Shown piece after piece: positions 43,711-63,717 of a stretch of 64,000 bases of DNA; the first letter of the stretch is position 1, and each line of letters opens with the position of its first letter. The DNA is from an uncultured Cytophagia bacterium. Its GTDB lineage: Bacteria > Zhuqueibacterota > Zhuqueibacteria > Residuimicrobiales > Residuimicrobiaceae. Position numbers and translations under genes: made by a program. The notes under the pieces were generated by a model, which saw only the letters and a list, made by a program, of their open reading frames with translations, did not search any database and was not told the DNA's origin. The DNA lies in assembly GCA_964541895.1 (NCBI GenBank), contig CAZISM010000008.1, positions 13,920 through 77,919 of the forward strand, in the 5' to 3' direction.

Positions 43711-44364
43711 ATGAGATCCTTTGCCATTATCGGGCTTTCCAGTTTCGGCTATTTTCTCGCCAAATCGCTGGCCGAAAGCGGCCATCGTATTATGACGATC
43801 GATATCAACGAAGACAAGATCGAAAAGATCCGCAACCATGTGGATCGGGCCGTGATCGCCGATGCCACCGACCGGGACACCCTGCAGTCTCTGGGCCTGC
43901 AGGAATTCGATATGGTGGTGGTCAGCCTGGGCGATAAAATCGACGCCAGCATTCTCGTGGTCCTCTACCTGCGTGAACTGAAAGTAAAACAGATTATCGC
44001 CAAAGCGTTGACCGAAGATCACGGAAAAATACTCGACATCATCGGCGCTACCCGGGTCATTTTCCCGGAGCGCGATGAAGCGTACCGACTGGCGAAAACC
44101 ATGGAAAGCGATTTTCTCCTCGATACCATTCCTCTGACCGATGGCATCAGTATCATAGAAATCGGCCCGCCGGAGCCCTGGCTGGGCAAAACTCTGGGTC
44201 AACTGGATTTGCGCAATCGGTATGGCGTGCTGGTACTGATGGTCAAAGAGCTGATCCCGGAAAAAGTGGTGCTGATACCCACAGCAGACCAGCTGATCAA
44301 GGACAGTGATATCCTCATCCTCATGGGCAAGGATGAAGATCTGGCCAAAATCAGAAATTTGTAG
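43711..44364 (+). CDS. trkA: TrkA/KtrA potassium uptake regulatory subunit (RCK domain)
   Basis: MRSFAIIGLSSFGYFLAKSLAESGHRIMTID is a Rossmann GxGxxG-type RCK N-domain, with an RCK_C domain following. Confidence 0.85.
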   Translation: MRSFAIIGLSSFGYFLAKSLAESGHRIMTIDINEDKIEKIRNHVDRAVIADATDRDTLQSLGLQEFDMVVVSLGDKIDASILVVLYLRELKVKQIIAKALTEDHGKILDIIGATRVIFPERDEAYRLAKTMESDFLLDTIPLTDGISIIEIGPPEPWLGKTLGQLDLRNRYGVLVLMVKELIPEKVVLIPTADQLIKDSDILILMGKDEDLAKIRNL

Positions 44365-44372
44365 GAGGTGGC

Positions 44373-44822
44373 ATGGCGATACAACTCATCCGTATCGTAC
44401 GCGAGCGGGCTGATCAGGGATCGCGCTCGGATCGTCAGGCGCGATGTTTTTTCTGTACCGGAGAAGGAGATGTGTATAGCGCGCAATGGGAACCGAACAC
44501 GGACATCATGGAGTGCCAGGATTGCGTCCTCATTCGCGTCGAGCTGCCGGGTATCGGGCGTGATGACGTTTCGATACATCTGAAAAACGGCCGTTTGGAA
44601 ATTCGCGGTGTACGACGCGAAAATCGACCGGGTGACCCGGTCCATTATCACCAGATGGAAATCGCCAAAGGCCCTTTTCTGAAGGTGATCGCCATACCGG
44701 AAGACATTGAGCACAACGAGATCGCCGCTGTACTGTCGGAGGGCATTCTGGATATCAGAATATCCAAGGCCAACGCGGTGATAGAAATTCCGGTGTCGGT
44801 GAACAATGCGGAAACCAAATAG
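44373..44822 (+). CDS. Hsp20/alpha-crystallin family small heat-shock protein
   Basis: WEPNTDIMECQDCVLIRVELPGIGRDDVSIHLKNGRLEIRG is the alpha-crystallin domain signature. Confidence 0.8.
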   Translation: MAIQLIRIVRERADQGSRSDRQARCFFCTGEGDVYSAQWEPNTDIMECQDCVLIRVELPGIGRDDVSIHLKNGRLEIRGVRRENRPGDPVHYHQMEIAKGPFLKVIAIPEDIEHNEIAAVLSEGILDIRISKANAVIEIPVSVNNAETK

Positions 44823-44838
44823 CAAGATGGGAGTGTAT

Positions 44839-47214
<2,376 letters not shown>

Positions 47215-48802: not shown

Positions 48803-51800
48803 ATGACAACTCGGAATCCACATACGGTTGACAGCAGCGTGACGCCGCGAAAGAAAAGGCGTCTGTGGCGATGGCTGGCCTGGTTCGTGATCGCGACGGC
48901 GCTCTTGCTCCTGGTCGTAACGCTGGTCGCACGCCACTATTTGCGGCCGGATCGGTTGCGCCGCCTGGCGATCGAGACGGTCGAGAAAAGCATGCCGCGC
49001 AAAATGCACATCGCCGATTTCGATTACCATCTGCTCCACGGCCTGGTCCTGAAGGGGGTGAGCATCCATGCCGCCGACAGCCTGCAGGACCTCTTTCCGC
49101 TCCGTCATCTTTCTTTCAGAGAGATGCGTCTGCAGTACAGCCTGCGCGACCTGCTGCAGCGGCGATTCATCGTCAACGAGATCAGCCTGCTGGAGCCGGA
49201 GCTGGAGCTCTTTGTCGATATGTCCACTCCCAGCGCGATCGATCTGGAGGCTCTGCTGGCCACCAGCCTGCCGATCGACTTTGATGTCAAAAAAATTCGC
49301 CTGCAGGATGCGAAATTCAAGATCGTGCTGGCGGATTCACAATACAATCAATCCTATCGTGTCGGCCAGATGAGCATCCTGGTCGATGAACTCCATCTTC
49401 CCCAAAAGGGCTGGTCGGCCAACGATTCGCTGCTGCACGGCACTCTGCGCGTTCTCTGCGAACATACCTCCCTTCATGTGGAATACCTGGACATTCCCAG
49501 CAGCGCCCGCATGCAGCTGGACTCGGATCTTAATGTCGACAGTCGAATCGATATCCATTCCTTCCGCCGCATCAGGCTGAACACGGCGTTAAAGCTTGGT
49601 AATCTGCACCTGCTCTATGAACCTCAAACCGTTACCCTGCCGACGACCTTTAGCCTTGGCCTGGATGCGGACATAAACGCGAGAGAGGGCAACGTGGCTG
49701 TGCAAACGCGCCTGGCGGTGGATGACCGTGAATGGCTGGCGGCGACGGTCGCGGTGGACTCTCTTTTTCAGCAGCCGAAATATCGTGTGCATGTCAGCCA
49801 CGGCGAGATACCGCTGGCGCAGCTGTTACAGATGACCCGGCACGTTCTGCCGGATTCCCTCATCCCGGTCACGATTACCGAGAGTGCGCAGCCTGTGTTT
49901 CGCTGCGACGGCATGGTGCTGGAGGGGCGGCTGCCGTCTCCATCCTCGGACGGCAAAATGGATTTCAGAGTGAACGGACGTCTGAGCCACACCGATTTTT
50001 TCGATCCGGGCCGCTCCTGGCTGGCGCGCGGCGTCGGCTTTTCTGTCCAGGCCGAAGGACACGGCAACGGCAAAAGCTTGCACACGCTCACCCTGCAGGC
50101 CAATGCCGATCTGGACAGTCTGCACTATGCCCTGAATGATACCATGGCGGTTTTCTCCGGCCATGGACAGCTGTACTTTTATTCACGACTGAACGAGCGC
50201 TTGTTGCCCGAAAAAACCAGACTATCCTTTACCTTGGCCAACTGCATGGGCGGAGCCATGGAAGGCGAAATGGACTTGACCGGCGAGTTGGCCCTGGCCC
50301 GTTTGGCGGGCAAGGGTCGTTTTAGCTGGCTGGATATTCCGCTGCACCATCTGGCCGCCACGCCGGTGCAGGGCAACCTCTCCCTGCGTTCCGATTTCAG
50401 CCTGTCCGGATTGGACCACCTGGCGGCGACGGTCCAGCTGTCCACCACACCGCTGCTGGTGGCCACGGAGGAACGTCCGCTCTCGGTGTCCGGCTTGAGA
50501 TTCATCGGCCGTGTCAGAGCCGGGGTGGATACGACGTTTTCCCGAATGCATCTTGATTCCATCCGGATCAACCTGAACGACATCGCGCGGATGCACGGCC
50601 GTGCCGATGTGGATCTCGCCGCTGGAAATTTCACCGTGGACCTGGACGAAGCCCTGCTGGAACACAGCGCTTTGCTGAACTGGCTTCCCGGCAGCCTGAT
50701 AGAACAGTACGGTGAACTGGCCGTCACCGGTCAAACACGGTTGCAGGTGCATGGCAAAGGCTCCATGACGAACCGGCCCTTGCAGTATTATCTCACCGGC
50801 GCGCTGACAACACGGAATACCAGCTTTTATGATCCTGACCATTTTTTGGCGATCGGCGGACTGGGCGTTCAAGCCGCCTGGCAGGTCGATGATCGCTCCG
50901 GTTTAGCCGCGCAATTGCAGGTGACCGTTGACAGCCTGACCCTGTCCGGTGGCACCAATATCAGCTACCTGAACAATCACATAGCGTTGCAGTTATCCAG
51001 TCCGGATTTTGCCGGCTATACGATCAGCAAGGGCGAGCTGGCAATCCCTGATGTGCGATCCACGGCTACGTTCACCGCACACTGGCAGGACAGCACCGTC
51101 ACGGCGCAGCTGGCCATCCACCAGGCCATTCCGGATAGTTTTGTCATCCGCGATCTGGTCATGCGCGGGGCGACGGATGTGGTGCTGGGTGTACACGCGG
51201 ATCCTGCGCTGGTGAATGTCCTCGCCGAGATCCACAGCCGCAACTGGTCTCTGTCCATGCCGGGCCTGGCGGATGTGCGCGGTTTGCAGGCTGATCTGTT
51301 TGTTCAGCAGCTCTATGACGTGCGCAAAGGGCAGTTCCTCGGCAGCGACGAATATCTCATCGCCACGCCGGCGCATGGCGTGCTCGATTATTTTTTGTAT
51401 CGGGATTTTTTCCGCCAGCGGCAGCCCCACCTGTCGCGCATCACCATCGAGCAGGTGGAGATTATGAGCTATGCGCTGCAAAACATCCGCCTGGAGTTGT
51501 TGGCCGATCAGGGACGCATCGAAGTTCCGGCCCTTGAAGCCACCCTGCTGGGCGGGAACGTTACCGGACGTTTGAGCGTCGATCTGGCCGGCGGTGATCT
51601 GGCCGGCGCCAGCTATCGTATGAGCGGACATTTTGCCAACATCAATTCGTACCTGTTAACCCGGTACGCCGCCATTCCCAGGGACGACGGCGTGGTCAAC
51701 GGCAATCTTGAATTTCGTGGTTCCGGGCTGAACCCGGAAGAACAGATGGTGCTGGACGGCCATTTTTATATCACTCAAATCGGTCCTACGGCTGCGGCCA

Positions 51801-52054
51801 ATTTGTTGAACTATCTCGATCCCGAAGCCAAAGACAGCGGCATCAGCACCTCGCGCATGCTGATCCGAAACGGCTTTAAGCCGAAACTGATGTCGTTTGA
51901 TTTTCGCAACCTGCACATGTACCCGGTGATCGAGTTCGCCAAGCCGTGGTATCTGCCGCGCGGGTTGGATCGTATCGAGCTCAATCGTATTCCGTTGCAG
52001 TTTTTCATGAATCGTATGCGGGCGCGCGCCGGCTGGGAAACCGCCAGCCGCTAG
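48803..52054 (+). CDS. AsmA-like/TamB-like inner-membrane-anchored large beta-rich protein (1083 aa)
   Basis: N-terminal anchor RRLWRWLAWFVIATALLLLVVTLVARHYL followed by an about 1000-aa Gly/Leu/Ser-rich beta-strand-prone sequence with no other TM. Architecture of AsmA/YdbH/TamB family lipid-transfer proteins. Confidence 0.65.
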   Translation: MTTRNPHTVDSSVTPRKKRRLWRWLAWFVIATALLLLVVTLVARHYLRPDRLRRLAIETVEKSMPRKMHIADFDYHLLHGLVLKGVSIHAADSLQDLFPLRHLSFREMRLQYSLRDLLQRRFIVNEISLLEPELELFVDMSTPSAIDLEALLATSLPIDFDVKKIRLQDAKFKIVLADSQYNQSYRVGQMSILVDELHLPQKGWSANDSLLHGTLRVLCEHTSLHVEYLDIPSSARMQLDSDLNVDSRIDIHSFRRIRLNTALKLGNLHLLYEPQTVTLPTTFSLGLDADINAREGNVAVQTRLAVDDREWLAATVAVDSLFQQPKYRVHVSHGEIPLAQLLQMTRHVLPDSLIPVTITESAQPVFRCDGMVLEGRLPSPSSDGKMDFRVNGRLSHTDFFDPGRSWLARGVGFSVQAEGHGNGKSLHTLTLQANADLDSLHYALNDTMAVFSGHGQLYFYSRLNERLLPEKTRLSFTLANCMGGAMEGEMDLTGELALARLAGKGRFSWLDIPLHHLAATPVQGNLSLRSDFSLSGLDHLAATVQLSTTPLLVATEERPLSVSGLRFIGRVRAGVDTTFSRMHLDSIRINLNDIARMHGRADVDLAAGNFTVDLDEALLEHSALLNWLPGSLIEQYGELAVTGQTRLQVHGKGSMTNRPLQYYLTGALTTRNTSFYDPDHFLAIGGLGVQAAWQVDDRSGLAAQLQVTVDSLTLSGGTNISYLNNHIALQLSSPDFAGYTISKGELAIPDVRSTATFTAHWQDSTVTAQLAIHQAIPDSFVIRDLVMRGATDVVLGVHADPALVNVLAEIHSRNWSLSMPGLADVRGLQADLFVQQLYDVRKGQFLGSDEYLIATPAHGVLDYFLYRDFFRQRQPHLSRITIEQVEIMSYALQNIRLELLADQGRIEVPALEATLLGGNVTGRLSVDLAGGDLAGASYRMSGHFANINSYLLTRYAAIPRDDGVVNGNLEFRGSGLNPEEQMVLDGHFYITQIGPTAAANLLNYLDPEAKDSGISTSRMLIRNGFKPKLMSFDFRNLHMYPVIEFAKPWYLPRGLDRIELNRIPLQFFMNRMRARAGWETASR

Positions 52055-52088: not shown

Positions 52089-52661
52089 ATGATGCGAAGG
52101 ATAGGGATCGTTCTCTTCGCCTCGGCGACTCTTTGGCTCGCCTGTTCGGTCAAGTTGCCGGAATTGACCTTCACCGGCGAAAAAACCGCTCTGGAGAACC
52201 AGGTCCTCGGCACCTATCAGCAGATCCAGAGCGATGCCTGGTTGATTGCATCGACGCGCTCCTTCGGCAGCGCGACCACCGATCTGTCAGCACCGAAACA
52301 GGAGGTGCTCGAAGCGGTGCAAAACCGCAAATTCAACAAGGACGACATCGACGAGTTCAAACGCGGCAGACTGGTCGGGGAGAACAATAAAGGCTATCTG
52401 ACCATTCTGGAAGGCAAAGAGTACACCGAAAAGGCGGAAGTCAAACGGGTGGTGGATCAGATCGTCAGCGAAGAAAATCGCGACCGCCAGATCATCTACG
52501 AACGGGTGATGGCGGTGAACATGGCCGCCAACCAGGCCGGAACGAACCGGGTGACCGAGATCTTTACCAAATTGAATTATGATGCTTCCGAGCCCGGCAC
52601 GCTGATCCAGACGGCGGACGGGCAGTGGATCGAAAAACCAAAACCGGGCAAGCAAGAGTGA
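52089..52661 (+). CDS. DUF1318 (YdbL-like) periplasmic lipoprotein
   Basis: AGGGAGG RBS 6 nt upstream. Lipobox LWLACS. C-terminal half KRGRLVGENNKGYLTIL...ENRDRQIIYERVMAVNMAANQAG...TADGQWIEKP aligns by eye with E. coli YdbL (GRVGETFYGYLVAL...NAERKASYQQLAKQN...INGKWVRK). Confidence 0.6.
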   Translation: MMRRIGIVLFASATLWLACSVKLPELTFTGEKTALENQVLGTYQQIQSDAWLIASTRSFGSATTDLSAPKQEVLEAVQNRKFNKDDIDEFKRGRLVGENNKGYLTILEGKEYTEKAEVKRVVDQIVSEENRDRQIIYERVMAVNMAANQAGTNRVTEIFTKLNYDASEPGTLIQTADGQWIEKPKPGKQE

Positions 52662-52787: not shown

Positions 52788-55700
52788 ATGACGCTTGCAA
52801 ATAAAATATCCGGTCTCTTTTGCGGTCTATTTTTTTCCGCTGTCGCCATAGTGTCCGCCCAGCCGGCCGTGCCCGGGAATCGGGTCGATTTTCGCCAGGT
52901 CACCACGCATCCGGACGTGGATTTGTCACCGCGGTTGTCACCGGACGGCAAATGGCTGGCCTATGTGTCGCGGCAAACCTACAATTTTGATATCTGGATC
53001 CAGTCCAGCGGCGGCGGCCGCGCCCGCCAGATCACGCTTAACAAGGCGGATGATTTTTATCCGGTCTGGTTTCCGGACGGCAAGGCCCTGGCTTTTGTTT
53101 CCCACAGCAGCGATGCCGCCGGCGATATCTATCGCATCCGCTTCAAAGAGGTGGACGGACAGCTCATTCCCAGAGAAGAGCCGCACCGAATCACCTCCTA
53201 TCTGGGCTATGACGGCTATCCCACCGTTTCTCCGGATGGTAAAAAGATCGCCTTTGTCTCCAACCGCTCCGGCCGCGATGAAGTCTGGTTCTGGAACGAA
53301 ACCACCGCCAAAACCAATCAGCTGACGTTTCTTGGCGGCACGCAACCGGCCTGGAGCTCCAATCAGGAATTGATCGCGTTCACCTCGTTTCGTGCCGATT
53401 CCAGTGACAACGGCGATATCTATCTGATGAATCTTTCCGGGCCCAAACCCGCAGCCCCTTCTGCCCTGTGGGACGAGCGGGAGTTGCCGGTGTATCGCAT
53501 TACCACCGGCGTGGCGGTGGACGGATTTCCCGCCTGGTCCAAAAATGCGGATCGCCTGGCGTTTTTGCGATTCAACGACGATACCAACCATGACGGCTTG
53601 GTCACCCCGGCGGACCGCGGCTGTCTGTGGGCGGCGGATGTTTTCCCCTTCCCGCAAAACGCAGCCACCCTGTTCGCGAAACCGCTGCTGGCCGAGTCGT
53701 TCAATCCTTTGCTGGTGCGGGCCGCCATGGCCCTGACCTCCGGCGCCGAGCAGGTTATGCAACCCTGGTATGGCGCTGATCGGCGTGTCTATTTCACCTC
53801 CGACCGCGGCGGCAATCTCGATATCTGGTCGGTGCCGGACAGCGGCATGGTGAAAAAGATGAGCAATGCAACGGCACAGCGTGCGCTGGCGGACGAGGTG
53901 TTCCCCCTGGCATCCCGGTTTACGCGGCAGCAGCGGGGTCCGCTCTTTCTCGCCTACCGACAGCAGCCGGTGGATGAAGCCGATTATAAAAGATTGTGTG
54001 AGCGGCGGTTGGCGTTCGAGCGGGTGCTGGACTATTGCAGCGACGATGCGGCGCTCAGCGCCGAAGCCCTGTATGAGATCGGTTTGTGCCATTTGTATCT
54101 GGGCCGCCCGGCCAAAGCGCTCACCTACTGGCATTGGCTTCTGACCAGCCACAAACAGCAGCGCGAGATGTGCGCTTATACCGAGCTCGCCCTCCTGGGC
54201 TTGCAGGTGCAGGGAGAGGTGAGCCATCCCCGGACGCTGACGCGGGTGCGCACTCAGCTGGACAGTCTGATCCGCGTCTATGGCGATCAACCGCAGCCGG
54301 CCAGCGAGGCGCAGATCACCATCGGCGATCTCTATTTTCATGCCGGCGATTTCCAGCGGGCGTTTCGCGAGTACAGCAGGGTTCAGAAAGAGTACGCTTC
54401 GCAGCGGGACGCCTGCGCCCAGAGCCAACTCAAGATGGGCGATGTGTTTCAGCGTTACGCCACCCGCGATGAAGTGATCCGCACCTACCTGAGCGTGATC
54501 GAAAACTATCCTGAGCAGCGGCAATGGATGCAACCGGCGCGCGATCGCATTCTGGAGCTGCTCACGCGCGATGTCCGCAACGATGACGAACGCATCAGCC
54601 GCTATCGCGAAATTGTCGGCCAGTACAGCCGTTTTGCCTTGTTGGCTGCCGCCGCGCAACTGCGTATCGCCGACCAGCTCTACCAGAACGGCGAGTATCG
54701 CGCCGCCATCCGGGAATACGAGCTGGTCGAATCACTGTTTCCGGCGCTGACGGAGGAGGTGTTCGCCAGCCAGATGGCCAGCAGCCGCGCTTATCTGAAG
54801 CTCGGCGAAAACCTGGCTGCGTTTTCCCAGCTGCAAACGCTTTATGAAACGTACACCTCCAGCCGGCCTGACCTGGCGGAGCAGACGCGGGCGGCGCTGT
54901 TGTCCGCGCTGCTGGCCTCTGCGGATCAGCTGAAAGACAGCCGCGATTATGAACTGGCGTTGACGCGTTACCGGCTGGCGCGCGACTATGACCTGCGCAA
55001 CCTGCATGCCCATCGCGGTTATATCGAATGTATGTATTATTTGAAGCAGATCCATAACGCCGAAGTCGAATACGATGCGCTCAACCGCAAACATCCCCGT
55101 GACAACGTGCTGACCTATGCGTTGGGCCTGGTCTATTCCTACTGCGGCACCGAGCGCGCCGAACTGTACGGCGAGGCGGACGGCCTGGACCCGGAGTACC
55201 TGGTGCACAAGTCCAGCGCCACCATCGCCCGGGCGCTCTCCTACGATTACACCATGGTGCAGGCCTATCTCACCATCAGCTACAATTATGAAATGATGGA
55301 GAATTACGAAGGGCGCCGTCGCGCCAAACCAAAGCCGTGGTATAAAAAATTTTACAACACCGTCACAGCGCCGCTGGTGACCCTGTACCGCACCCTGACG
55401 TTTTATGAAGAGAGCCGGCCCAAACCCTACTATGAACGGGCCATTCACGAGCTCAACAAAGCGATCGTGCTCAATGATGAGAGCAAGGATCCCTATCTCG
55501 AAGCCGGCCTGGCCCTCAACCTGGCCAACAACTATTACAATCTCGGTGAATTCGGTTTTGCCAAAGCGTACGAGTTCTATCACATCAAGCTGAAATACGA
55601 TTCCACCTTTAATGATCCGAGACGGGAAGCGCTGATCTATGAACATATGGGCCATTGCGCTCTTGTCACCGAAGATGTGGAGCGGGGCCCGCGCTACCTG

Positions 55701-58700
55701 CAGCGCGCCATCAGCCGCTACCAGGCCATGGGCAAGGAGGAGTCGGTCCGCATCAACACCAAACGGCTGGCGCTGTTATACGAAATCGCACACCAGTACG
55801 ATCGCGCCATCGATCAGTACCAGGCGGCGGCCGAGATGGAGCAGCGCTCCCGACGTTATGACGATCTGATGCGCAGCTATCGCAGCATCGCCTATAATTA
55901 TCTGCAGTTGGGAGAACCGCGGGATGCCATGCACTGGGCCAACCGCGCCCTGGCGCTGATCGATCAGGGCCAGGTCAAAATGGTCAAGACCAAAGCCAAT
56001 CGCGTCCAGATCGGATTTTTCGGTTTGTACGTGCCGGTGCCGTTCGTCAATCTCAGCAGCGCTTTTACCCGTTTTACCACAGCGGATGAGAAAGCGCTGC
56101 TGTTCACCATTATCGGCGAGAGCTGGGAACAGCTGAAGGATTTTGATCAGGCCATCCGTTTTCTGGAAAAAAAGATCGCCCTGTATCGCGAACGAAGCGA
56201 TCGCTGGTCGGAATCCATTTTCCTCAACAATGTGGGTTATCTCTACTATTTGAAAGGCGATCCCCGACAGGCGGCCTCTTTTTTCAAGCGATCGCTGGAA
56301 CTGTCGGAAAAGGAGGGCATCACCCAGGGCATCGTTCTCAACAGCCTGTCGCTGGGCCGGCTGACGACCGGTCGCCTGCGCGCCCAGCAGTTGCAGCCGG
56401 CGGCGATCGCGATGGACGCCCGCGAACGGCAGGCGGAGATAGAGCTGGCGGCTGAAAAAATCAACCTGGCGTTGCGGCATCTGGATCAATCGCTGGCCGT
56501 CTATGCGCGCACCCGCTGCCAACTGCTGTTGCTTCTGGCCGAGCTGGCCATGGCTGATTCCGCTGCGCCGGATCAGGCTGCGGCTGGGCAGATTGCCGCC
56601 TCGTTTCAATTTCTGCACAACAGCAGCGATGCCCGCGCCTATCTGGAGGAAGCGCTGCAGGTGAGCCGGGAACAGTACCTGCATCCTGAAGAAACCCAAA
56701 CCACCTTTGCGTTGGCCGACCTGTTCGCGCGGCTGGGTGACCTGGCCGATTCCTACCGGTATGCCCAACGCAGCCGCAAACTGGCGCTGCGTTTCGGCGT
56801 ATACGATGTGGTGTGGCAGGCGGATGTGCTCATCGGCGACCTGATCGATCGCATGAGCCCGGCCGATCGGCGTTCGCTTCTGGTTCAGCTGGATCCTCTG
56901 GAATGCTACCAGGAAGCGATCGCCGTGATGGAGGCGCACCCGCAAACCCGCAAGGGGCTGGAGGCGGCCTCCCAGCGCCTCTCACAGCGGATACCGTATC
57001 AACGCGCGTTTGCTTATCTGCTGCGGCTCGGCGATGTGGAGGGAGCTCTGGCCTTTGCAGAGCGAATGCGCGCCAAAGCCTATTATGATCTGGTGCAGTC
57101 GGAAGAGATCGAGCTGCGCAAAGAACGTCACAAAGTATTTTTTGGCAACGCCCGGTTTCTGCACAATCAGCTGAAAAAGCTGGAAGCCGATCTGATGGCC
57201 GGTCGACAGAACGACCAGATCACGGCGCGCCAGATCAAAGAGTGGGAGCAGAAACAGAGCGAGTACAACAGCGAATTTGAAGCTATTCTCAAACAGGTGC
57301 GTCAGGAAGTGCCGGAGCTGGAAACCCTGATCCGGATCAAACCGGTGGCTGTGCCGGATCTGCAGAAAAAGCTGCGGCCCAAAGATGTTCTCTACTTTTA
57401 CGCGCTCGGCGACAGCGCCGGCGTCTGGCGCATCACCGGTCAGGCTATCACCTATAACTCTCTGCCGCTTTCTCTGCTGGACCTGGCACCACTGTTGCAG
57501 GCGTATAACGGACAAGCACATTCGGCAACGGCCGACAGCACGCCCCTCCTGCGCCGGTTGCTGGCTCCGGTCGTGGCACAGACCATGCCCGAGCAGCATA
57601 TCGTCATCGCGGCGGATGAAGAGCTGATGCTGCTGCCCTGGGCGGGTTGGCTGCATCGGCAGGCGAACCTGGCTAATGACGTTTCGGTGGTTTCCAGTCT
57701 TACGGCGTACCAGGAAGCGCTGCAGAAACGACGCCTGCCCGGCATCCGCCTGTACGCGGCGGATGATCGAGCCATCACCGATGCCCTGGCAACGCAAGAG
57801 TATGCTCTGCTCTATCCGGTGCCGGGGCAAATGGAAAACAGTTTTGCCGGCCAGATGGCGGCCATGGCGCTGGCGGATATTGTGCATCTGCGCGTGGAGA
57901 GCGACTGGCGCGGTCTTGACCCGCTGCAATCACGATTCGGCTTTACCATTCCGCGATCGGCACCGGCCCAGTTCTCGGTCAAGCAACTGTACCAGGTGAA
58001 CCTGGCGGCCAGCCTGCTGTCGTTGACCAATCGACGCACGCAGACGCCGCTGCAGGAGCCGGCTTCGGTGCTGGCTCTGGAGCGCAGTGCGCTCTACAGC
58101 GGCACCGCCGCAGTTCTGCTGTCTCTCTGGCCAGGGACGCTGGAACAGGACCGAACTTTTTTCACGGCCTTTTATGCCCATCTGAAATCCATGCCGCCGG
58201 CGGCGGCCCTGGCCGCCACCCAGCATGCCCTGCGTGACTCGATGAATATCGACCGATTTCAGCTCTATGGTTTCGGCGGCATGAGCACGGATGAAGAGAT
58301 TCATTATGCCGAAGAGGGCTTTGAAACCAAAGTGCGCCGCGGCCACAGCGCCTTTGACATGGGCGACTGGAGCGAAGCCATACAGGCCTACGAAGAGGCG
58401 CTGCAGATGGCGGAAAAACAGCACAACAGCGCCAGCCGGGCCATGCTGAACGACCGCCTTCTCGAGAGCGCCGTGAACGGCCGTTTGTGGGCCAAAGCCA
58501 TTGAGGTGCAGAGCCGGATCCTGCACAGCGCCGAGGAGGCCAACGATCTGGACGCCATGGCAACCGCATATAACAATCTATCCTACTTTTATACCCAAAA
58601 CAGGGAATTCGAGCAGGGGATCGCCTACAAGAACCGGTTTTTTGCCATGGCGCAAAAGTACGGCTTGAAAGAGGAAGAGGCCGCGGCATTGCGTGACATG

Positions 58701-61187
58701 GCTCTGATTTACGAGCGCGGCGGTAATGCAAAGCAGGCGATGGCGTTGTATCAACAGGCTTTGGAGAAATATCAAACCCTGACCAGTGTAAAACATGTGG
58801 CCATGTGTTTGCGCGATTTGGGGCGCATAGAATTCCTTTATCTCGACCACTATCCGGCGGCCCTGGCCCATCAGCAGGAAGCCCTGCGTCTGCTGCCGGT
58901 GGAGCCGGCCACGGCAGCCGATCGCATCGACATGCTGCAGAACCTGGGATTGATTTATGAGCGCATGGGTCTGTATGATCCGGCGCTGACCGCCCAAACC
59001 GAGGCGTTGACGCTGGCGCTAAACTTGAAGAACGAAAAGCTGCAGGGGTTGAGTCGCCAGTATATGGCCAATCTGTACTGGAAAATGGGTGACTATTACA
59101 ATGCCTTGCAGCAACAACAGTCGGCAGAGACCATTTTTAACGCTCTTCACGACGACAAATTGCGCCAGGTCGCACTGGCTACCCGCGGATTGCTGGCGCT
59201 GAGTCTGGGTATGCCGGAAGAGGCATTGCGTCATGAACAGGCCGCTTTGGAGCTGGCCATAGCCAATGACGACCGCCAGGATCAATCCACTATTTATAAA
59301 AACCTGGCCACCATCAACCGCACGCAGAAAAAGTATGAAACAGCTTTGGCGCAACTGGAGCAGGCGGCGCGGCTGGATTCCAGTTTGAATTCCAGGCGCG
59401 GCATGGCCTATAACCTGCGCAATCTGGCGGCGCTGCATCTGGACCGGCAAGAGACCGCTGCAGCGAAGGCTTTGGCCCATGATGCCTTGCGGGTCAGTAT
59501 CGAGTTACAGGACCTGCGCAATCAGGCGCAGAGCAGTCTGGTGCTGGCCAAAGCCTGGCGCGCTCTCGGCGCCGCTGATTCGTGCTCCCACTATCTCGAG
59601 CAGGCGTTCACGATTGCCGAACGAGCGCTCATGCCGGAGATCGCCTGGCGTGCCCTGCAGGAACGCGCGCAGCTGTCGCTGGACGAAAAAAATTCCGCCC
59701 AGGCGGTGGAATCGCTGTTTCAGGCCATCGGGATCATCGAGTCCATGCGCAGCCGCATTAAAGTGGAGGATCACAGCGCCGGCTTTATGGATGACAAGCT
59801 GTATGTGTACGATCAGCTGGTTGTCCTGCTGCTGGATCAAAACAGATATACGGAAGCCTGGCAAGTGACCGAACGGGCCCGGAGCCGGCGTTTTCTCGAT
59901 CTGCTCGGTAATCGCCGCGTGCGCCTGGGCCGCAGCCAGGATAACCGCCTGTTGGTGAGAAAAGACAGCCTGCAGAGTCTGTTGCAGCAGGCGGAGAGCG
60001 AACTGGTTTTTCAGATGAGTCAAACCGATTCTGTGCCGGCCGGCGTCAGAGCCGATGCCGAAACGCGGGTGCGTTCTTTGCGCGCCGATCTGAGCGACCT
60101 GCTTCGCGCCATGGCCGCCCAGAATCCGCAGCTGGCCGAACTGGTGCAGGTGGCGCCGCCGGAGGTAGCGCAGGTGCAAAAAGCGCTGAGCGACCGCACC
60201 GCCATGCTGATCTATCATCAAATGAAGGAGCGGTTGATCGTATTTTATGTCGATTCGGCATCATGCAATTCGGCAACGCTGGCGTTGAGCGATTCGTTGC
60301 TCAGCCACCAGGTGGAAACACTGCGCAAAGGCTTGCAGCGACAACTTGCCATTCAGGAGTCAGCGGCGGAATTGTATCAGGAACTGATCAAGCCGTTTGA
60401 GGTCGAACTGGCGTCGGTCCGTCATATCGTCATCGTGCCGTCCAACAGCCTGCATTACCTGCCCTTTAATGTTTTGCAGGATGCCGGCGGCGACTACATG
60501 GGATTGCGCTGGTCATTGTCGCTGGCGCCCAGCAGCAGCGTCTGGCTGCACTGCCTGCGGCAGGGTGGCAGGCCGGCAACGGAGCAGGTGCGCCAGTTTA
60601 AAGTGACGGCGTTCGGCAATCCGTCACTGGGCGACAGCAAATGGGACCTGCCCTTTGCCGCCCGGGAGGTCAGGAGCCTGCAGCGCTACTTTCCAACCGT
60701 GCAATCCTATTTAAACGCCAGGGCCACCGAAACAGCGGTCAAACAGCAGGCCTTGTCGCCGTTGCTGTTGTTCAGCTGCCATGGCGAATACGACAGCCGC
60801 CATCCGCTGATGTCGGCGCTGCTGCTGACCGGTGACAAGCAACAGGACGGCCGGTTGAGCGCCCATGAAATCATGGGGCTGGATTTAAACGCCTACCTGA
60901 CCGTCGTCAGCGCCTGCGAGACGGGCCTGGGCACCGTACGCAGCGGCGATGAGGTGGAGGGATTGGTGCGCAGTTTCATCCTCGCCGGCAGCTCGTCGGT
61001 AGTGACCAGTTTGTGGAAAGTGGATGATTTGGCAACAGCAGTCCTCATCAAGCGTCTGTTCCGTTATCTGGCCGAGGGCGACAGCAGAGCGGAAGCGTTA
61101 CGAAAAGCACAACGGGTCGTTTTTACAGAAATCAACCCCTATCCCTCCTACTGGGCGGGATTCCATATCACAGGAGATTTTCGCTGA
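52788..61187 (+). CDS. giant (2799 aa) signal-peptide protein: TolB-like PD40 beta-propeller, TPR array, degenerate CHAT-like domain, TPR array, C-terminal CHAT peptidase domain
   Basis: Signal peptide GLFCGLFFSAVAIVSAQPAVPG. PD40 repeats (SPDGKWLAYVS, FPDGKALAFVS, SPDGKKIAFVS). Dozens of TPRs. C-terminal CHAT with SCHG (His2665, nt 60780) and VVSACETGLG (Cys2710, nt 60915). An internal CHAT-like copy at about aa 1600-1820 (nt 57590-58250) lacks the Cys. Confidence 0.8.
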   Translation: MTLANKISGLFCGLFFSAVAIVSAQPAVPGNRVDFRQVTTHPDVDLSPRLSPDGKWLAYVSRQTYNFDIWIQSSGGGRARQITLNKADDFYPVWFPDGKALAFVSHSSDAAGDIYRIRFKEVDGQLIPREEPHRITSYLGYDGYPTVSPDGKKIAFVSNRSGRDEVWFWNETTAKTNQLTFLGGTQPAWSSNQELIAFTSFRADSSDNGDIYLMNLSGPKPAAPSALWDERELPVYRITTGVAVDGFPAWSKNADRLAFLRFNDDTNHDGLVTPADRGCLWAADVFPFPQNAATLFAKPLLAESFNPLLVRAAMALTSGAEQVMQPWYGADRRVYFTSDRGGNLDIWSVPDSGMVKKMSNATAQRALADEVFPLASRFTRQQRGPLFLAYRQQPVDEADYKRLCERRLAFERVLDYCSDDAALSAEALYEIGLCHLYLGRPAKALTYWHWLLTSHKQQREMCAYTELALLGLQVQGEVSHPRTLTRVRTQLDSLIRVYGDQPQPASEAQITIGDLYFHAGDFQRAFREYSRVQKEYASQRDACAQSQLKMGDVFQRYATRDEVIRTYLSVIENYPEQRQWMQPARDRILELLTRDVRNDDERISRYREIVGQYSRFALLAAAAQLRIADQLYQNGEYRAAIREYELVESLFPALTEEVFASQMASSRAYLKLGENLAAFSQLQTLYETYTSSRPDLAEQTRAALLSALLASADQLKDSRDYELALTRYRLARDYDLRNLHAHRGYIECMYYLKQIHNAEVEYDALNRKHPRDNVLTYALGLVYSYCGTERAELYGEADGLDPEYLVHKSSATIARALSYDYTMVQAYLTISYNYEMMENYEGRRRAKPKPWYKKFYNTVTAPLVTLYRTLTFYEESRPKPYYERAIHELNKAIVLNDESKDPYLEAGLALNLANNYYNLGEFGFAKAYEFYHIKLKYDSTFNDPRREALIYEHMGHCALVTEDVERGPRYLQRAISRYQAMGKEESVRINTKRLALLYEIAHQYDRAIDQYQAAAEMEQRSRRYDDLMRSYRSIAYNYLQLGEPRDAMHWANRALALIDQGQVKMVKTKANRVQIGFFGLYVPVPFVNLSSAFTRFTTADEKALLFTIIGESWEQLKDFDQAIRFLEKKIALYRERSDRWSESIFLNNVGYLYYLKGDPRQAASFFKRSLELSEKEGITQGIVLNSLSLGRLTTGRLRAQQLQPAAIAMDARERQAEIELAAEKINLALRHLDQSLAVYARTRCQLLLLLAELAMADSAAPDQAAAGQIAASFQFLHNSSDARAYLEEALQVSREQYLHPEETQTTFALADLFARLGDLADSYRYAQRSRKLALRFGVYDVVWQADVLIGDLIDRMSPADRRSLLVQLDPLECYQEAIAVMEAHPQTRKGLEAASQRLSQRIPYQRAFAYLLRLGDVEGALAFAERMRAKAYYDLVQSEEIELRKERHKVFFGNARFLHNQLKKLEADLMAGRQNDQITARQIKEWEQKQSEYNSEFEAILKQVRQEVPELETLIRIKPVAVPDLQKKLRPKDVLYFYALGDSAGVWRITGQAITYNSLPLSLLDLAPLLQAYNGQAHSATADSTPLLRRLLAPVVAQTMPEQHIVIAADEELMLLPWAGWLHRQANLANDVSVVSSLTAYQEALQKRRLPGIRLYAADDRAITDALATQEYALLYPVPGQMENSFAGQMAAMALADIVHLRVESDWRGLDPLQSRFGFTIPRSAPAQFSVKQLYQVNLAASLLSLTNRRTQTPLQEPASVLALERSALYSGTAAVLLSLWPGTLEQDRTFFTAFYAHLKSMPPAAALAATQHALRDSMNIDRFQLYGFGGMSTDEEIHYAEEGFETKVRRGHSAFDMGDWSEAIQAYEEALQMAEKQHNSASRAMLNDRLLESAVNGRLWAKAIEVQSRILHSAEEANDLDAMATAYNNLSYFYTQNREFEQGIAYKNRFFAMAQKYGLKEEEAAALRDMALIYERGGNAKQAMALYQQALEKYQTLTSVKHVAMCLRDLGRIEFLYLDHYPAALAHQQEALRLLPVEPATAADRIDMLQNLGLIYERMGLYDPALTAQTEALTLALNLKNEKLQGLSRQYMANLYWKMGDYYNALQQQQSAETIFNALHDDKLRQVALATRGLLALSLGMPEEALRHEQAALELAIANDDRQDQSTIYKNLATINRTQKKYETALAQLEQAARLDSSLNSRRGMAYNLRNLAALHLDRQETAAAKALAHDALRVSIELQDLRNQAQSSLVLAKAWRALGAADSCSHYLEQAFTIAERALMPEIAWRALQERAQLSLDEKNSAQAVESLFQAIGIIESMRSRIKVEDHSAGFMDDKLYVYDQLVVLLLDQNRYTEAWQVTERARSRRFLDLLGNRRVRLGRSQDNRLLVRKDSLQSLLQQAESELVFQMSQTDSVPAGVRADAETRVRSLRADLSDLLRAMAAQNPQLAELVQVAPPEVAQVQKALSDRTAMLIYHQMKERLIVFYVDSASCNSATLALSDSLLSHQVETLRKGLQRQLAIQESAAELYQELIKPFEVELASVRHIVIVPSNSLHYLPFNVLQDAGGDYMGLRWSLSLAPSSSVWLHCLRQGGRPATEQVRQFKVTAFGNPSLGDSKWDLPFAAREVRSLQRYFPTVQSYLNARATETAVKQQALSPLLLFSCHGEYDSRHPLMSALLLTGDKQQDGRLSAHEIMGLDLNAYLTVVSACETGLGTVRSGDEVEGLVRSFILAGSSSVVTSLWKVDDLATAVLIKRLFRYLAEGDSRAEALRKAQRVVFTEINPYPSYWAGFHITGDFR

Positions 61188-61189
61188 TC

Positions 61190-62464
61190 ATGAAAAAGAC
61201 ACTAGCCATGATTCTGGCCGGCGGCCGGGTGGACGAGTTGTCCGTCCTGACGTTGTACCGGCCGAAATCCGCTCTGCCGTTCGGCGGCATGTATCGCGTG
61301 ATCGATTTCCCGCTGAGCAACCTCATGCACTCGGGCATCGAACGAATCGGAATTCTCTCCCAGTATCGTTCCGACTCTCTCATCACGCACATCGGCTCCG
61401 GCCGCAGCTGGGATATGGTCGGCAGCCAGCGCGGCGTGCACCTGTTGCCGCCGATGAAGGGCACGGTCAGTTCCGACTGGTATCGCGGTACGGCGGATGC
61501 GGTGTATCAAAACAAAGAATTCATTTACCGTCATAATCCAAATTATGTCCTCATTCTTTCCGGCGATCACGTCTACAAAATGGATTATGCCGAGATGATC
61601 GCGTTTCATGAAGAGGTCAAGGCCGATGTGACCGTGGCGTTTGTCAATGCCGAGGGCGACGGCCTGGACCGCTTCGGCCAGGGCGTGATCGAGGACGGCC
61701 ACAGCAAAGGCGGACGTTTGCTGCGCTATGTGGAGAAACCGAGCCAGCCGCTCTCGTCCTGGGCCTCCATGACCATCTATCTGTTCAGCCTCTCCGCCCT
61801 GCAATATGTTCTCGATGAGATGATGAAGCCGCCGGCGACCGAACATTTTGGTCGCGACATCCTGCCGGTGCTGTTGGAGAAGAAGCGGGTGTTTGGCTAT
61901 AAATTTCACGGCGCCTGGGCCTATTCGCGCACCATCGATGAATACTGGGCGGCGAACATGAGCCTGCTGCAAACGCCGACGCTGTTTAATATCGATGAGT
62001 GGCAGGTGCGCACCAACCTGGACAACGAGCGGGTGCGGGATAGGGCCCCGGCTATCATCGGCCAGAATGCGCGGGTGGTGCAGAGCCGCATTAACCATGG
62101 TTGTGTGATTCACGGCACGGTGCGCAATTCCATCCTTTTCCCTGGCGTCTGTGTGGAGGAGGGCAGTGTCGTGGAGGATTCCATCCTCATGTACGACAGC
62201 TGTGTCGGCCGCAATGCCCGGCTGCACAAGGTCATCGCCGATGTACAGGTAACGGTCGATCGCGAGGCGGTAGTCGGTGCCGGCCGCAACCTCGGGGCCA
62301 ACAAAGAGTATCCGGATCTGTTGAATTCCGGCATCACCATCATCGGCCGCAATACGGTCATCCCCGCAAGTGCCCGGATCGGCGCCAATTGCATCATTTA
62401 TCCCAACAAAACCGCAAAGGATTTTCCGCAACCGACCATGGCGAGCGGGAGGACATTGAAATGA
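61190..62464 (+). CDS. GlgC-family protein with a degenerate nucleotide-binding loop (GlgD-like regulatory subunit of ADP-glucose pyrophosphorylase)
   Basis: MILAGGRVDELSVLTLYRPKSALPFGGMYRVIDFPLSNLMHSGIERIGILSQY has the GlgC fold pattern, but the Gly-rich GGxGxRL loop is replaced by GGRVDEL. Left-handed beta-helix C-domain present. Confidence 0.75.
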   Translation: MKKTLAMILAGGRVDELSVLTLYRPKSALPFGGMYRVIDFPLSNLMHSGIERIGILSQYRSDSLITHIGSGRSWDMVGSQRGVHLLPPMKGTVSSDWYRGTADAVYQNKEFIYRHNPNYVLILSGDHVYKMDYAEMIAFHEEVKADVTVAFVNAEGDGLDRFGQGVIEDGHSKGGRLLRYVEKPSQPLSSWASMTIYLFSLSALQYVLDEMMKPPATEHFGRDILPVLLEKKRVFGYKFHGAWAYSRTIDEYWAANMSLLQTPTLFNIDEWQVRTNLDNERVRDRAPAIIGQNARVVQSRINHGCVIHGTVRNSILFPGVCVEEGSVVEDSILMYDSCVGRNARLHKVIADVQVTVDREAVVGAGRNLGANKEYPDLLNSGITIIGRNTVIPASARIGANCIIYPNKTAKDFPQPTMASGRTLK

Positions 62465-63717
62465 GACAAACCGTAGCGTTCTTGCTGGCTGGCGGCGTCG
62501 GCAGCCGGCTCAATATTCTGGGCTGGATGCGCGCCAAACCGGCGGTACCCTTTGGCGGCTGCTACCGCCTCATCGATTTCACCATGAGCAACGCCATGAA
62601 TTCCGGCGTGCAACAGATCGGTATTCTCACCCAGTATCGCCCCTATTCGCTCATGGGCCATATCAGCTCCGGCGAAGCCTGGGACCTGGTCGGCCGCCGC
62701 CGCGGCGCCCGCATCCTGCCGCCCTCCACCGGCCGGGAGGATTTTGACTGGTACCGCGGCACGGCCGATGCGGTGGCGCAGAATCTGGCTTTTGCGGAAA
62801 ATTACGGCGCCAAACGCATTCTTGTGCTGTCCGGCGACCATATTTATAAAATGGACTATGCGCCGATGGTGGAATTCCATCAGCAGAAAAAAGCGGATAT
62901 CACCATTGCCACCATGCAGGTGCCGTGGGAGGACACGCACCACTTTGGCATCGGCATCACCGACGAACACCAGCGCATCATCGACTGGGAAGAGAAACCA
63001 AAGAAAGCCAAAAGCAACCTGGCCTCCATGGGCGTGTATGTGTTCGATTATGGATTCCTTAAAAAAGCCCTGGAGCAGCGGCAGGGACACGATTTCGGCA
63101 AAAACATCATCCACGATGCCATCAAAAGCGCCAACGTCTATGCCTATCAATTCAACGGCTATTGGGCGGATGTAGGCACGCTCAAGGCCTACTGGCAGGC
63201 GAGCATGGACATCCTGCAGCCGGATTCAGGACTGGATCTGGCCACCTGGGGCGTGCGCACCAACTATGAAGAGGAGGGGCTGGCCGGCGACCGGCCGACC
63301 GCGTTCATGGGGCCGCAGGCCAAAGTGGTCAACTCGGTGATTTCCATCGGCTGTGTGGTGCATGGCACGGTGATCAATTCCATTTTATCGCCGGGCGTGC
63401 ACGTGCAAGCCGGTGCTGTGGTGAAGGATTCCGTGATCATGCACGACGCCCATATCGGTCGCCAGGCGAAACTGCAGGCTGTGCTGGCGGATAAAAACAG
63501 CAGCTTCGGCAACGGCTGCCAGGTGGGCATTGGCGACGCCTCGCACCCCAATGAACTGTTCCCCGAACATCTGTTCAGCGGCCTGACCGTGGTGGGCAAA
63601 AAAGCAATGGTGCCGGACAATAAAAAGATTTTTACCAATTCGATTATCGAGCCGCTGGTGAACAAGGAGAGCTATCTCGGCATCAAGCTGGGTGAAGGGG
63701 CGTATGTAAAAAGATAG
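62461..63717 (+). CDS. glgC: glucose-1-phosphate adenylyltransferase (catalytic subunit)
   Basis: MRQTVAFLLAGGVGSRLNILGWMRAKPAVPFGGCYRLIDFTMSNAMNSGVQQIGILTQY with intact GGxGSRL and RAKPAVPFGG motifs. Its ATG overlaps the stop of the upstream gene (ATGA). The track ORF 62101..63717 is a 5' over-extension. Confidence 0.85.
   Translation: MRQTVAFLLAGGVGSRLNILGWMRAKPAVPFGGCYRLIDFTMSNAMNSGVQQIGILTQYRPYSLMGHISSGEAWDLVGRRRGARILPPSTGREDFDWYRGTADAVAQNLAFAENYGAKRILVLSGDHIYKMDYAPMVEFHQQKKADITIATMQVPWEDTHHFGIGITDEHQRIIDWEEKPKKAKSNLASMGVYVFDYGFLKKALEQRQGHDFGKNIIHDAIKSANVYAYQFNGYWADVGTLKAYWQASMDILQPDSGLDLATWGVRTNYEEEGLAGDRPTAFMGPQAKVVNSVISIGCVVHGTVINSILSPGVHVQAGAVVKDSVIMHDAHIGRQAKLQAVLADKNSSFGNGCQVGIGDASHPNELFPEHLFSGLTVVGKKAMVPDNKKIFTNSIIEPLVNKESYLGIKLGEGAYVKR

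Follow-up and report, generated by a model that had tools for sequence, protein, structure and literature searches.

Proteases in which tetratricopeptide repeats (TPR) lead into a caspase-like CHAT domain are tightly gated switches, with separase acting in mitosis, craspase in the immunity based on clustered regularly interspaced short palindromic repeats (CRISPR) and DdvA in phage sensing. DdvA from Myxococcus xanthus is a transmembrane anti-sigma factor with a solved periplasmic TPR-CHAT domain (PDB 8rot/8rw5); it functions as a dimer, with each active site proposed to be completed by the adjacent protomer, and it is proposed to sense a phage-associated protein (PMC11506125). The active sites of TPR-CHAT proteases adopt an inactive resting geometry until a partner or ligand triggers them, and the separases and craspases treated in the same work are site-specific (PMC11506125). 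DdvA is the sole described periplasmic TPR-CHAT precedent which we found in the literature. The present work deals with a gene on the plus strand, positions 52788-61187, of a 64,000-nucleotide stretch of contig CAZISM010000008.1 from an uncultured bacterium of the Zhuqueibacterota (in the following, the window). Its product of 2799 amino acids (aa), here called the giant, combines a predicted signal peptide and a beta-propeller with two tandem TPR-CHAT units, of which the first is predicted to be catalytically dead and the second retains its catalytic dyad. In most of the related loci inspected, a gene for a DUF1318 (YdbL-like) lipoprotein lies directly upstream.

This gene pair recalls a second described system, the ydbH-ynbE-ydbL operon of Escherichia coli. 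There, the AsmA-like protein YdbH and the outer-membrane lipoprotein YnbE constitute an intermembrane bridge, and YdbL, a chaperone-like DUF1318 protein, binds YnbE and modulates assembly of the YdbH-YnbE bridge, for which the amount of YdbL relative to YdbH/YnbE is critical; DegP degrades free YdbL in vitro, and proteolytic control of YdbL has been proposed (PMC11126948, PMC13464000).

Architecture of the Giant Protein

The gene is a single intact open reading frame (ORF) of 2799 codons without internal stop. A stop codon just 5' of the start at 52788 makes this the longest possible reading, beginning at the first possible start codon, and base composition (GC content) is even over the whole ORF. 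The features of the protein, all on the plus strand, are as follows.

52788..61187, +: complete gene of the giant, a predicted secreted propeller / TPR / dead CHAT / TPR / live CHAT protein of 2799 aa (intact ORF; more than 100 collinear homologues)
52788..52859, +: predicted Sec-type signal peptide, aa 1-24, cleavage between VSA and QP (sequence features and conservation)
52890..53987, +: PD40 (TolB/tricorn-type) beta-propeller, aa ~35-400, six recognisable blades (PD40 E 1.5e-36, DPPIV_N E 6.5e-10)
54045..57107, +: TPR array 1, aa ~420-1440, including a highly conserved family-specific stretch at aa ~700-1200 (TPR_6/2/12 matches)
57135..58307, +: internal CHAT-like module, aa 1450-1840 (Pfam CHAT aa 1587-1822), lacking the catalytic His/Cys (CHAT E 1.8e-14)
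58320..59777, +: TPR array 2, aa ~1845-2330 (TPR_12 E 3.5e-32, TPR_1/2/8/10), collinear with array 1 over the latter's C-terminal part
59928..61184, +: C-terminal CHAT module, aa 2381-2799 (Pfam CHAT aa 2523-2797), dyad intact (CHAT E 2.1e-60)
60780..60782, +: CAT, codon of the predicted catalytic His2665 (His in 106 of 113 aligned family members)
60915..60917, +: TGC, codon of the predicted catalytic Cys2710 (Cys in 105 of 113 aligned family members)

The 2799-aa protein is real and does not consist of joined genes. An assembly or annotation artefact, in which several genes were fused by missed stops or frameshifts, might be suspected from the unusual length of the ORF and from the fact that several public gene calls of close relatives use another Met (P0001: MVSAQ). 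In view of the uninterrupted 2799 codons, of more than 100 independent assemblies with collinear proteins of 2.6-2.9 thousand aa, and of an identical protein on record from an 85.6-kb NCBI contig, we regard the probability of such an artefact as practically nil. A chimeric ORF, which the sequence-only reading of this DNA had named as one of the findings that would overturn it, is excluded because more than 100 homologues are collinear and of the same length.

Pfam searches covered the full-length protein as well as six overlapping segments of it. The order of the parts is signal peptide, propeller, TPR array, and then the two tandem TPR-CHAT units, the dead one preceding the live one. TPR families cover aa ~420-1450 and ~1850-2320, and in total more than 2000 aa of the giant are repeat scaffold. 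The signal peptide, the TolB-like PD40 propeller and the two TPR arrays, all of which had been proposed from the sequence only, were thus recovered. For the propeller there are five Pfam PD40 matches within aa 1-420 and six blade motifs starting at aa 51, 94, 148, 189, 250, and 327, and Tricorn_N/Tricorn_2nd matches are precomputed for the N-terminus of homologues.

The likeness to TolB, namely a PD40-type propeller in a periplasmic protein, holds at fold level only. The TIGR02800 TolB model scores 105.5 bits against a cut-off of 343 bits and covers just its propeller part (model positions 184-356); the giant is not a TolB, since it lacks the N-terminal TolA-binding domain and there are no tol-pal genes nearby. 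Tricorn protease has a PD40-type propeller as well, whereas its PDZ and S41 catalytic domains are missing from the giant.

An arrangement of propeller plus peptidase is typical of enzymes of the tricorn, DPP-IV and prolyl oligopeptidase type. The giant might accordingly be a secreted nutritional peptidase for protein scavenging, whose propeller filters peptides to the protease, and the PD40, DPPIV_N and Tricorn_N/Tricorn_2nd matches at the N-terminus are in line with this. On the other hand, ~2100 residues comprising the TPR arrays and the dead module lie between the propeller and the live CHAT, no Por_Secre_tail-like secretion-tail domain was found by Pfam in the whole protein, and the tight operon link to a YdbL-like lipoprotein described below fits no scavenging role. 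Moreover, the characterized TPR-CHAT proteases, separases and craspases, are site-specific (PMC11506125). We consider a nutritional enzyme quite improbable.

Two Tandem TPR-CHAT Units

The C-terminal module matches the CHAT family PF12770 over its full length (model positions 1-289 of 289) with 205 bits for the segment, and the internal module reaches 54.3 bits, with a gathering cut-off of 24 bits. In a BLASTP comparison of the two CHAT regions an alignment of 351 columns with 21% identity (E 7e-6) was obtained, which recovers the segment pairs HIVIAADEELMLLPW/HIVIVPSNSLHYLPF and ...LLSLW/...VTSLW from which the segment-by-segment likeness of the two copies had first been recognised. The alignment pairs His2665 of the live module with Glu1704 of the internal one, and Cys2710 with Thr1747. 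Both the C-terminal CHAT domain with its His and Cys and the dyad-less internal copy hence agree with the sequence-only reading.

His2665 lies within SCHGEY and Cys2710 within SACETG, and the motifs SCHG and SACETG are conserved in the family. Across an alignment of 113 sequences, ~93% of the members retain the C-terminal dyad. The corresponding columns of the internal module hold no conserved residue, and a single sequence of the 113 has both a His and a Cys nearby. Because no conserved His or Cys stands at the dyad positions in these 113 members, the internal CHAT copy is, judging from the alignment, an old pseudo-protease which is dead family-wide. The C-terminal dyad is missing as well from nine of the 113 aligned members, one of which, P0057, is a truncated sequence. 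Both CHAT modules are predicted to be dead in P0066 (locus L090, 6001-14385), P0060 (locus L091, 6001-13953), P0053, P0056, P0059, P0067, P0069, and P0092.

Conservation within the family is highest in the C-terminal CHAT (2.5-3.0 bits per column). Next come the first propeller blades and aa 800-1000, where TPR array 1 has its conservation peak. The internal CHAT is the least conserved region of all.

For both modules AlphaFold2 models were calculated from a family alignment of 43 sequences. The C-terminal module (aa 2381-2799) was modelled with a predicted local distance difference test score (pLDDT) of 88.8 and a predicted template modelling score (pTM) of 0.82, the internal module (aa 1450-1840) with 90.3 and 0.86, respectively. 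With Foldseek against the PDB, the C-terminal model matches the craspase TPR-CHAT (3.6e-15), DdvA (1.9e-11), separase (1.4e-10), gingipain (1.2e-6), and also SAVED-CHAT, all of these with probability 1.00; the internal model matches Csx29 (1.1e-10), separases (1.2e-8) and DdvA (5.1e-8). These models are confident, so that the structural comparison of both copies which had been suggested as a check bears out their caspase-like assignment as far as predicted folds can. Each module of ~400 aa aligns with its Foldseek targets over 350-500 columns, which suggests that each may span more than the catalytic core. At sequence level, Csx29-type chains are the only PDB relatives of the C-terminal module found by phmmer, with the CHG and ACET motifs aligned. 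By profile, dyad and predicted fold the C-terminal module is a member of the CHAT family, and peptidase activity is predicted for it; the internal module is a member by profile and predicted fold and fails on the dyad.

The resemblance of the two copies extends well beyond the CHAT domains. A BLASTP comparison of aa 900-1840 with aa 1841-2799 yielded one collinear alignment of 886 columns (E 5e-5, 20% identity), in which ~aa 988-1781 are paired with ~aa 1899-2743 through the TPRs, a helical lead-in and the CHAT domain. Because the two halves align collinearly across all three parts, the alignment argues that the whole TPR-CHAT unit of ~800-900 aa was duplicated in tandem and not the CHAT domain alone. 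The idea of a pseudo-protease paired with an active protease is retained in so far as there is one dead and one live copy; the assumption that only the CHAT domain was copied has to be given up.

Comparison with DdvA, Csx29 and Separase

DdvA shares with the giant the periplasmic TPR-CHAT with a His-Cys dyad, predicted in our case, and its fold matches both modules. Two TPR-CHAT units stand side by side in either case, as a homodimer in DdvA and as a tandem repeat within one chain in the giant. Features of DdvA only are its size of ~990 aa, a cytoplasmic zinc anti-sigma domain, a transmembrane helix, the pairing with a sigma factor of the extracytoplasmic function (ECF) type and the control of an island with CRISPR and a cyclic-oligonucleotide-based antiphage signalling system (CBASS). 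The giant has no anti-sigma domain according to Pfam, no transmembrane helix and no flanking sigma gene and is therefore not of the DdvA type; its own features are the PD40 propeller, ~1000 aa of additional TPR, one dead unit and the location in a housekeeping envelope operon.

The craspase protease Csx29 of type III-E CRISPR systems (PDB 8d9f, 7y8t, 8eex) is the best structural match of both modules; it likewise has TPR followed by CHAT and is a site-specific, gated protease. Csx29 itself is cytoplasmic, comprises ~700 aa, is bound to gRAMP/Cas7-11 and is activated by target RNA. With a predicted signal peptide, four times the size and no CRISPR genes nearby, the giant is not a Csx29.

Separase (Peptidase C50; PDB 5fby, 7nj1, 5u1t) resembles the giant in that a very large helical-repeat scaffold precedes a caspase-like domain. 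In separase, too, a non-catalytic protease-like domain accompanies the active one, whereas the dead and the live module of the giant are ~700 aa apart and each has its own TPR array. Separase is controlled by its tightly bound partner securin, which offers a possible analogy for the DUF1318 protein. It is a eukaryotic, nuclear/cytoplasmic enzyme with cohesin as substrate, and since the Pfam C50 scores of 27.1 bits (C-terminal segment) and 19 bits (whole protein) remain below the cut-off of 27.8 bits, the giant is to be regarded as a structural relative and not as a member of this family.

Signal Peptide and Export

The N-terminus of the giant, MTLANKISGLFCGLFFSAVAIVSA followed by QP, is the sole hydrophobic stretch in the whole protein, and whole-sequence hydrophobicity revealed no further transmembrane segment beyond it. 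An equivalent hydrophobic N-terminus is present in 90 of 112 full-length homologues, eight of which carry a lipobox instead of a signal-peptidase I site; these lipobox variants occur in one clade. The remaining 22 homologues are mostly truncated gene calls which begin inside the mature protein. From the features of this N-terminus and their conservation in the family we infer that the giant is exported to the periplasm or cell envelope. The sequence-only reading had called such a location unusual for a CHAT-TPR protein. This is a fair statement, as one described case was found, although it is not absolute in view of the DdvA precedent (PDB 8rot; PMC11506125).

Three public gene calls which are 98% identical to the giant of the window (P0001, P0122, and P0125) begin 20 codons downstream, at MVSAQP. 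These records have no signal peptide, so that an automated localisation would wrongly assign the proteins to the cytoplasm.

Homologues of the Giant Protein

In a search space of 5.8 billion proteins, more than 100 collinear homologues of 2.6-2.9 thousand aa with 25-98% identity to the giant were found. Where named, they are entered as "CHAT domain-containing protein" from candidate division KSB1, Candidatus Zhuqueibacterota, Calditrichaeota, or an unclassified "bacterium"; these taxon names are the source labels of the protein search and not a taxonomic census. The family-specific stretch aa 700-1200 was used for a HMMER search of 1.84 billion representatives of 50%-identity clusters. Of the best 150, ~60 match this stretch nearly end to end and at the same position, almost all of them proteins of ~2.6-2.9 thousand aa or fragments thereof, and the rest are generic TPR repeat matches only. 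A scan of genome contigs with the family alignment was swamped by the generic PD40 pattern and returned three true family loci only (L006-L008). According to these sequence searches, the family is of modest size and conserved length and is confined to a single lineage.

Literature on KSB1 and CHAT, on DUF1318 and CHAT, and on CHAT and TolB or propellers contains no description of the giant family or of a DUF1318-CHAT association that we could find. Its members can already be found in public databases, where they bear a generic name, and the family itself is uncharacterized. The earlier statement that no described system has this architecture therefore stands with regard to the literature; the impression of a one-off fusion does not, given more than 100 public relatives.

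Genomic Neighbourhood

Directly upstream of the giant, as stated before, lies an AsmA-like/DUF1318 module.

48803..52054, +: AsmA-like protein, 1083 aa, with a transmembrane-like N-terminus as predicted membrane anchor (AsmA 32.2 bits, cut-off 29.8)
52089..52661, +: DUF1318 (YdbL-like) lipoprotein, 190 aa (PF07027 E 1e-12)

The DUF1318 protein scores 48.8 bits against PF07027 (cut-off 27 bits), and its DUF1318 domain can be aligned to E. coli YdbL (PDB 28oj) over all of the mature YdbL chain. The Cys of its lipobox LWLAC is invariant in nine of nine aligned orthologues, all of which also possess a conserved N-terminal extension of ~60 aa before the YdbL-like domain. The extension has the consensus C-S-[VI]-K-x-P-E-V-x-V-T-G-E-K-T-A-L-E-x-x-V-L-G-T-Y...W...A-S-T-R-S and no Pfam match. 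It was also considered as a fused YnbE, which is not supported, as neither a Pfam match nor any similarity by hidden Markov model (HMM) beyond the lipobox was found. The AsmA-like protein matches DUF748 with 38 bits, below the cut-off.

Gene context was compared in a sample of 13 loci encoding homologues of the giant at 25-46% identity. In 11 of them, down to a giant identity of 25-30%, the gene directly upstream on the same strand is a DUF1318 gene of 180-210 codons, and in eight this is preceded by an AsmA-like gene. Such lipoprotein genes were seen in the window and in L001-L008, L087, L090, and L091, each upstream of the giant. The DUF1318 stop codon overlaps or abuts the start of the giant gene in five of nine loci measured (L001, L004, L005, L006, and L008), and the called genes overlap or abut in L087, L090, and L091 as well. 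With 39-52% identity, the DUF1318 protein is better conserved than the giant. The link to the envelope module is therefore stronger than had been assumed, DUF1318 being a conserved partner gene. In the window, the 126-bp gap between the DUF1318 gene and the giant contains no promoter- or terminator-like site, and a promoter/terminator scan across the operon gave nothing above shuffle expectation, which is compatible with co-transcription and otherwise uninformative.

Compared with ydbH-ynbE-ydbL of E. coli, the locus likewise has a gene for an AsmA-like protein with inner-membrane anchor followed by a DUF1318 gene in one operon. The E. coli operon contains YnbE and no giant protease, and in the window the situation is reversed. 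Furthermore, the DUF1318 protein of the window is a predicted lipoprotein with the ~60-aa extension, whereas E. coli YdbL is soluble and comprises 108 aa.

Farther upstream in the window, the AsmA-like, DUF1318 and giant genes are preceded by genes for TrkA, HSP20, Lon and a UDP-sugar pyrophosphorylase (UDPGP), and at a greater distance by those for ATP synthase and aspartyl-tRNA synthetase (AspRS). The order TrkA/HSP20/Lon/UDPGP/AsmA-like/DUF1318/giant is common to the window (44373-47214, 43711-44364) and to L001 (1058-4656), a contig of 6.5 Mb. Because this gene order is kept although the giant of L001 is only 46% identical to that of the window, it indicates a stable chromosomal neighbourhood.

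This neighbourhood bears on the question whether the giant serves in conflict or defence, as a periplasmic sensor-protease in the manner of DdvA or craspase, in which the TPRs or the propeller would detect a phage or competitor protein and proteolysis would trigger a response. CHAT domains are frequent in conflict systems, and the closest solved folds are those of Csx29 and DdvA, the latter a periplasmic TPR-CHAT and proposed sensor of a phage protein (PMC11506125). Against this stand the lack of an anti-sigma domain and of a second transmembrane segment and the absence of ECF sigma, CRISPR, CBASS or other defence genes from the examined flanks. PADLOC returned a generic TPR model match only and nothing defence-specific, and the synteny with housekeeping genes over 25-98% identity points to vertical inheritance and not to a mobile island. 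A defence system as the leading reading was rejected on the PADLOC result and the flanks, and we judge such a role improbable.

A distant subgroup of ~2555-2620 aa (P0100 in L086; P0107 in L088) has the same domain types and no DUF1318 neighbour. In L086 a 91-aa hydrophobic ORF overlaps the start of the giant gene instead, and in L088 a 407-aa protein without Pfam match is encoded upstream.

Proposed Function

Our tentatively favoured reading, to which we would give a little less than an even chance, is that the giant serves as a periplasmic scaffold and gated, site-specific protease with the YdbL-like lipoprotein and the AsmA-like bridge as its partners or targets. Like separase, Csx29 and DdvA, it would be gated by a ligand or partner and cleave at specific sites instead of degrading in bulk. 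The dead TPR-CHAT unit would be the non-catalytic partner of the live one for binding of a substrate or regulator, and the two units may pair within the chain as a pseudo-dimer, which would be comparable with the homodimer of DdvA. A partner may be docked by the propeller and the conserved TPR stretch at aa ~800-1000, and the DUF1318 lipoprotein encoded directly upstream would be the likeliest candidate. Via this lipoprotein the giant could influence the AsmA-like protein from the same operon, which would bridge inner and outer membrane. One component of the AsmA-like/DUF1318 module would be held by the giant and, in most lineages, also cleaved, which could tune assembly or stoichiometry of the module, similar to the role proposed for DegP proteolysis of YdbL in E. 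coli.

A more specific version, possible and yet rather unlikely, is that the giant is a periplasmic protein devoted to regulating an AsmA-like bridge for intermembrane lipid transport, and that it cleaves the YdbL-like lipoprotein or the bridge protein. Here, the YdbL-like lipoprotein would be bound through the propeller or the conserved TPR groove, and the one live CHAT site, paired intramolecularly with the dead unit, would set bridge assembly. If true, lipid homeostasis of the outer membrane would be under a caspase-like checkpoint that has no counterpart in model bacteria.

Several observations weigh against the function which we tentatively favour. The link between the giant and the DUF1318 protein derives from gene adjacency, which is not interaction, the substrate of the protease is putative, and the signal peptide was recognised from sequence features only. 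The DUF1318 gene is missing from the two most distant loci (L086 and L088) and the AsmA-like gene from five of the 13 loci. A YnbE-like lipoprotein gene or domain was not found at the locus, where merely 34 bp separate the AsmA-like and DUF1318 genes, and the AsmA-like protein could not be supported as a YdbH orthologue (BLASTP E 0.3 against E. coli YdbH). Finally, in the two dyad-less members checked, P0060 and P0066, the order AsmA-like / DUF1318 / giant is kept. Because dyad-less members exist and these two retain the operon, proteolysis is not indispensable to the role of the family.

The last point leads to the main alternative, in which the giant would chiefly be a scaffold or tether of the envelope without catalytic function, organising the periplasm or the AsmA-like bridge in the manner of TolB/Pal. 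Its CHAT activity would be secondary or confined to self-processing, and the DUF1318 lipoprotein would anchor it to the outer membrane. The propeller of TolB binds the lipoprotein Pal, more than 2000 aa of the giant are repeat scaffold, and conservation in the propeller and in the TPR stretch aa 800-1000 is about equal to that in the CHAT; besides, there are the nine dyad-less members of 113, including the truncated P0057. Nevertheless, the most conserved part of the giant is formed by the dyad, its flanking motifs and the C-terminal CHAT, and since the dyad is retained in ~93% of the members, selection on catalysis is implied. We hold a chiefly structural role to be unlikely.

Should the favoured combination of scaffold and gated protease prove true, the giant would join DdvA as a second periplasmic CHAT protease, and a very different one. 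Throughout an uncultured lineage (KSB1, Zhuqueibacterota, and relatives), the periplasm would constitutively contain a TPR-CHAT switch in which one chain carries a dead and a live unit in tandem, and which is coupled genetically to an AsmA-like lipid bridge and a YdbL-like lipoprotein. For the control of assembly and stoichiometry of AsmA-like bridges, only the degradation of YdbL by DegP has been proposed in E. coli; if the coupling is functional, the locus would be a natural system with a dedicated protease for studying this control. Even if the link is indirect, the conserved dead/live tandem of TPR-CHAT units would be a useful case for pseudo-protease regulation.

Further Genes of the Window

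Downstream of the giant two tandem genes encode proteins with NTP_transferase and hexapeptide domains (GlgC/GlmU-like sugar-1-phosphate nucleotidyltransferases; 61190-62464 and 62101-63717), the first of which begins 2 bp past the stop codon of the giant. As listed, the second ORF overlaps with the first one, and its Pfam match does not start until aa 126, so that its true start is probably near 62470. The pair is also found 3' of the giant in L091 and in no other examined homologue locus.

Elsewhere in the window, two adjacent ORFs at 21183-24077 (964 aa) and 24088-28608 (1506 aa) encode large TPR-repeat proteins. The 1506-aa protein has a match to YfiO/BamD-type outer-membrane-lipoprotein TPRs, so that the window contains a second pair of large TPR envelope proteins.

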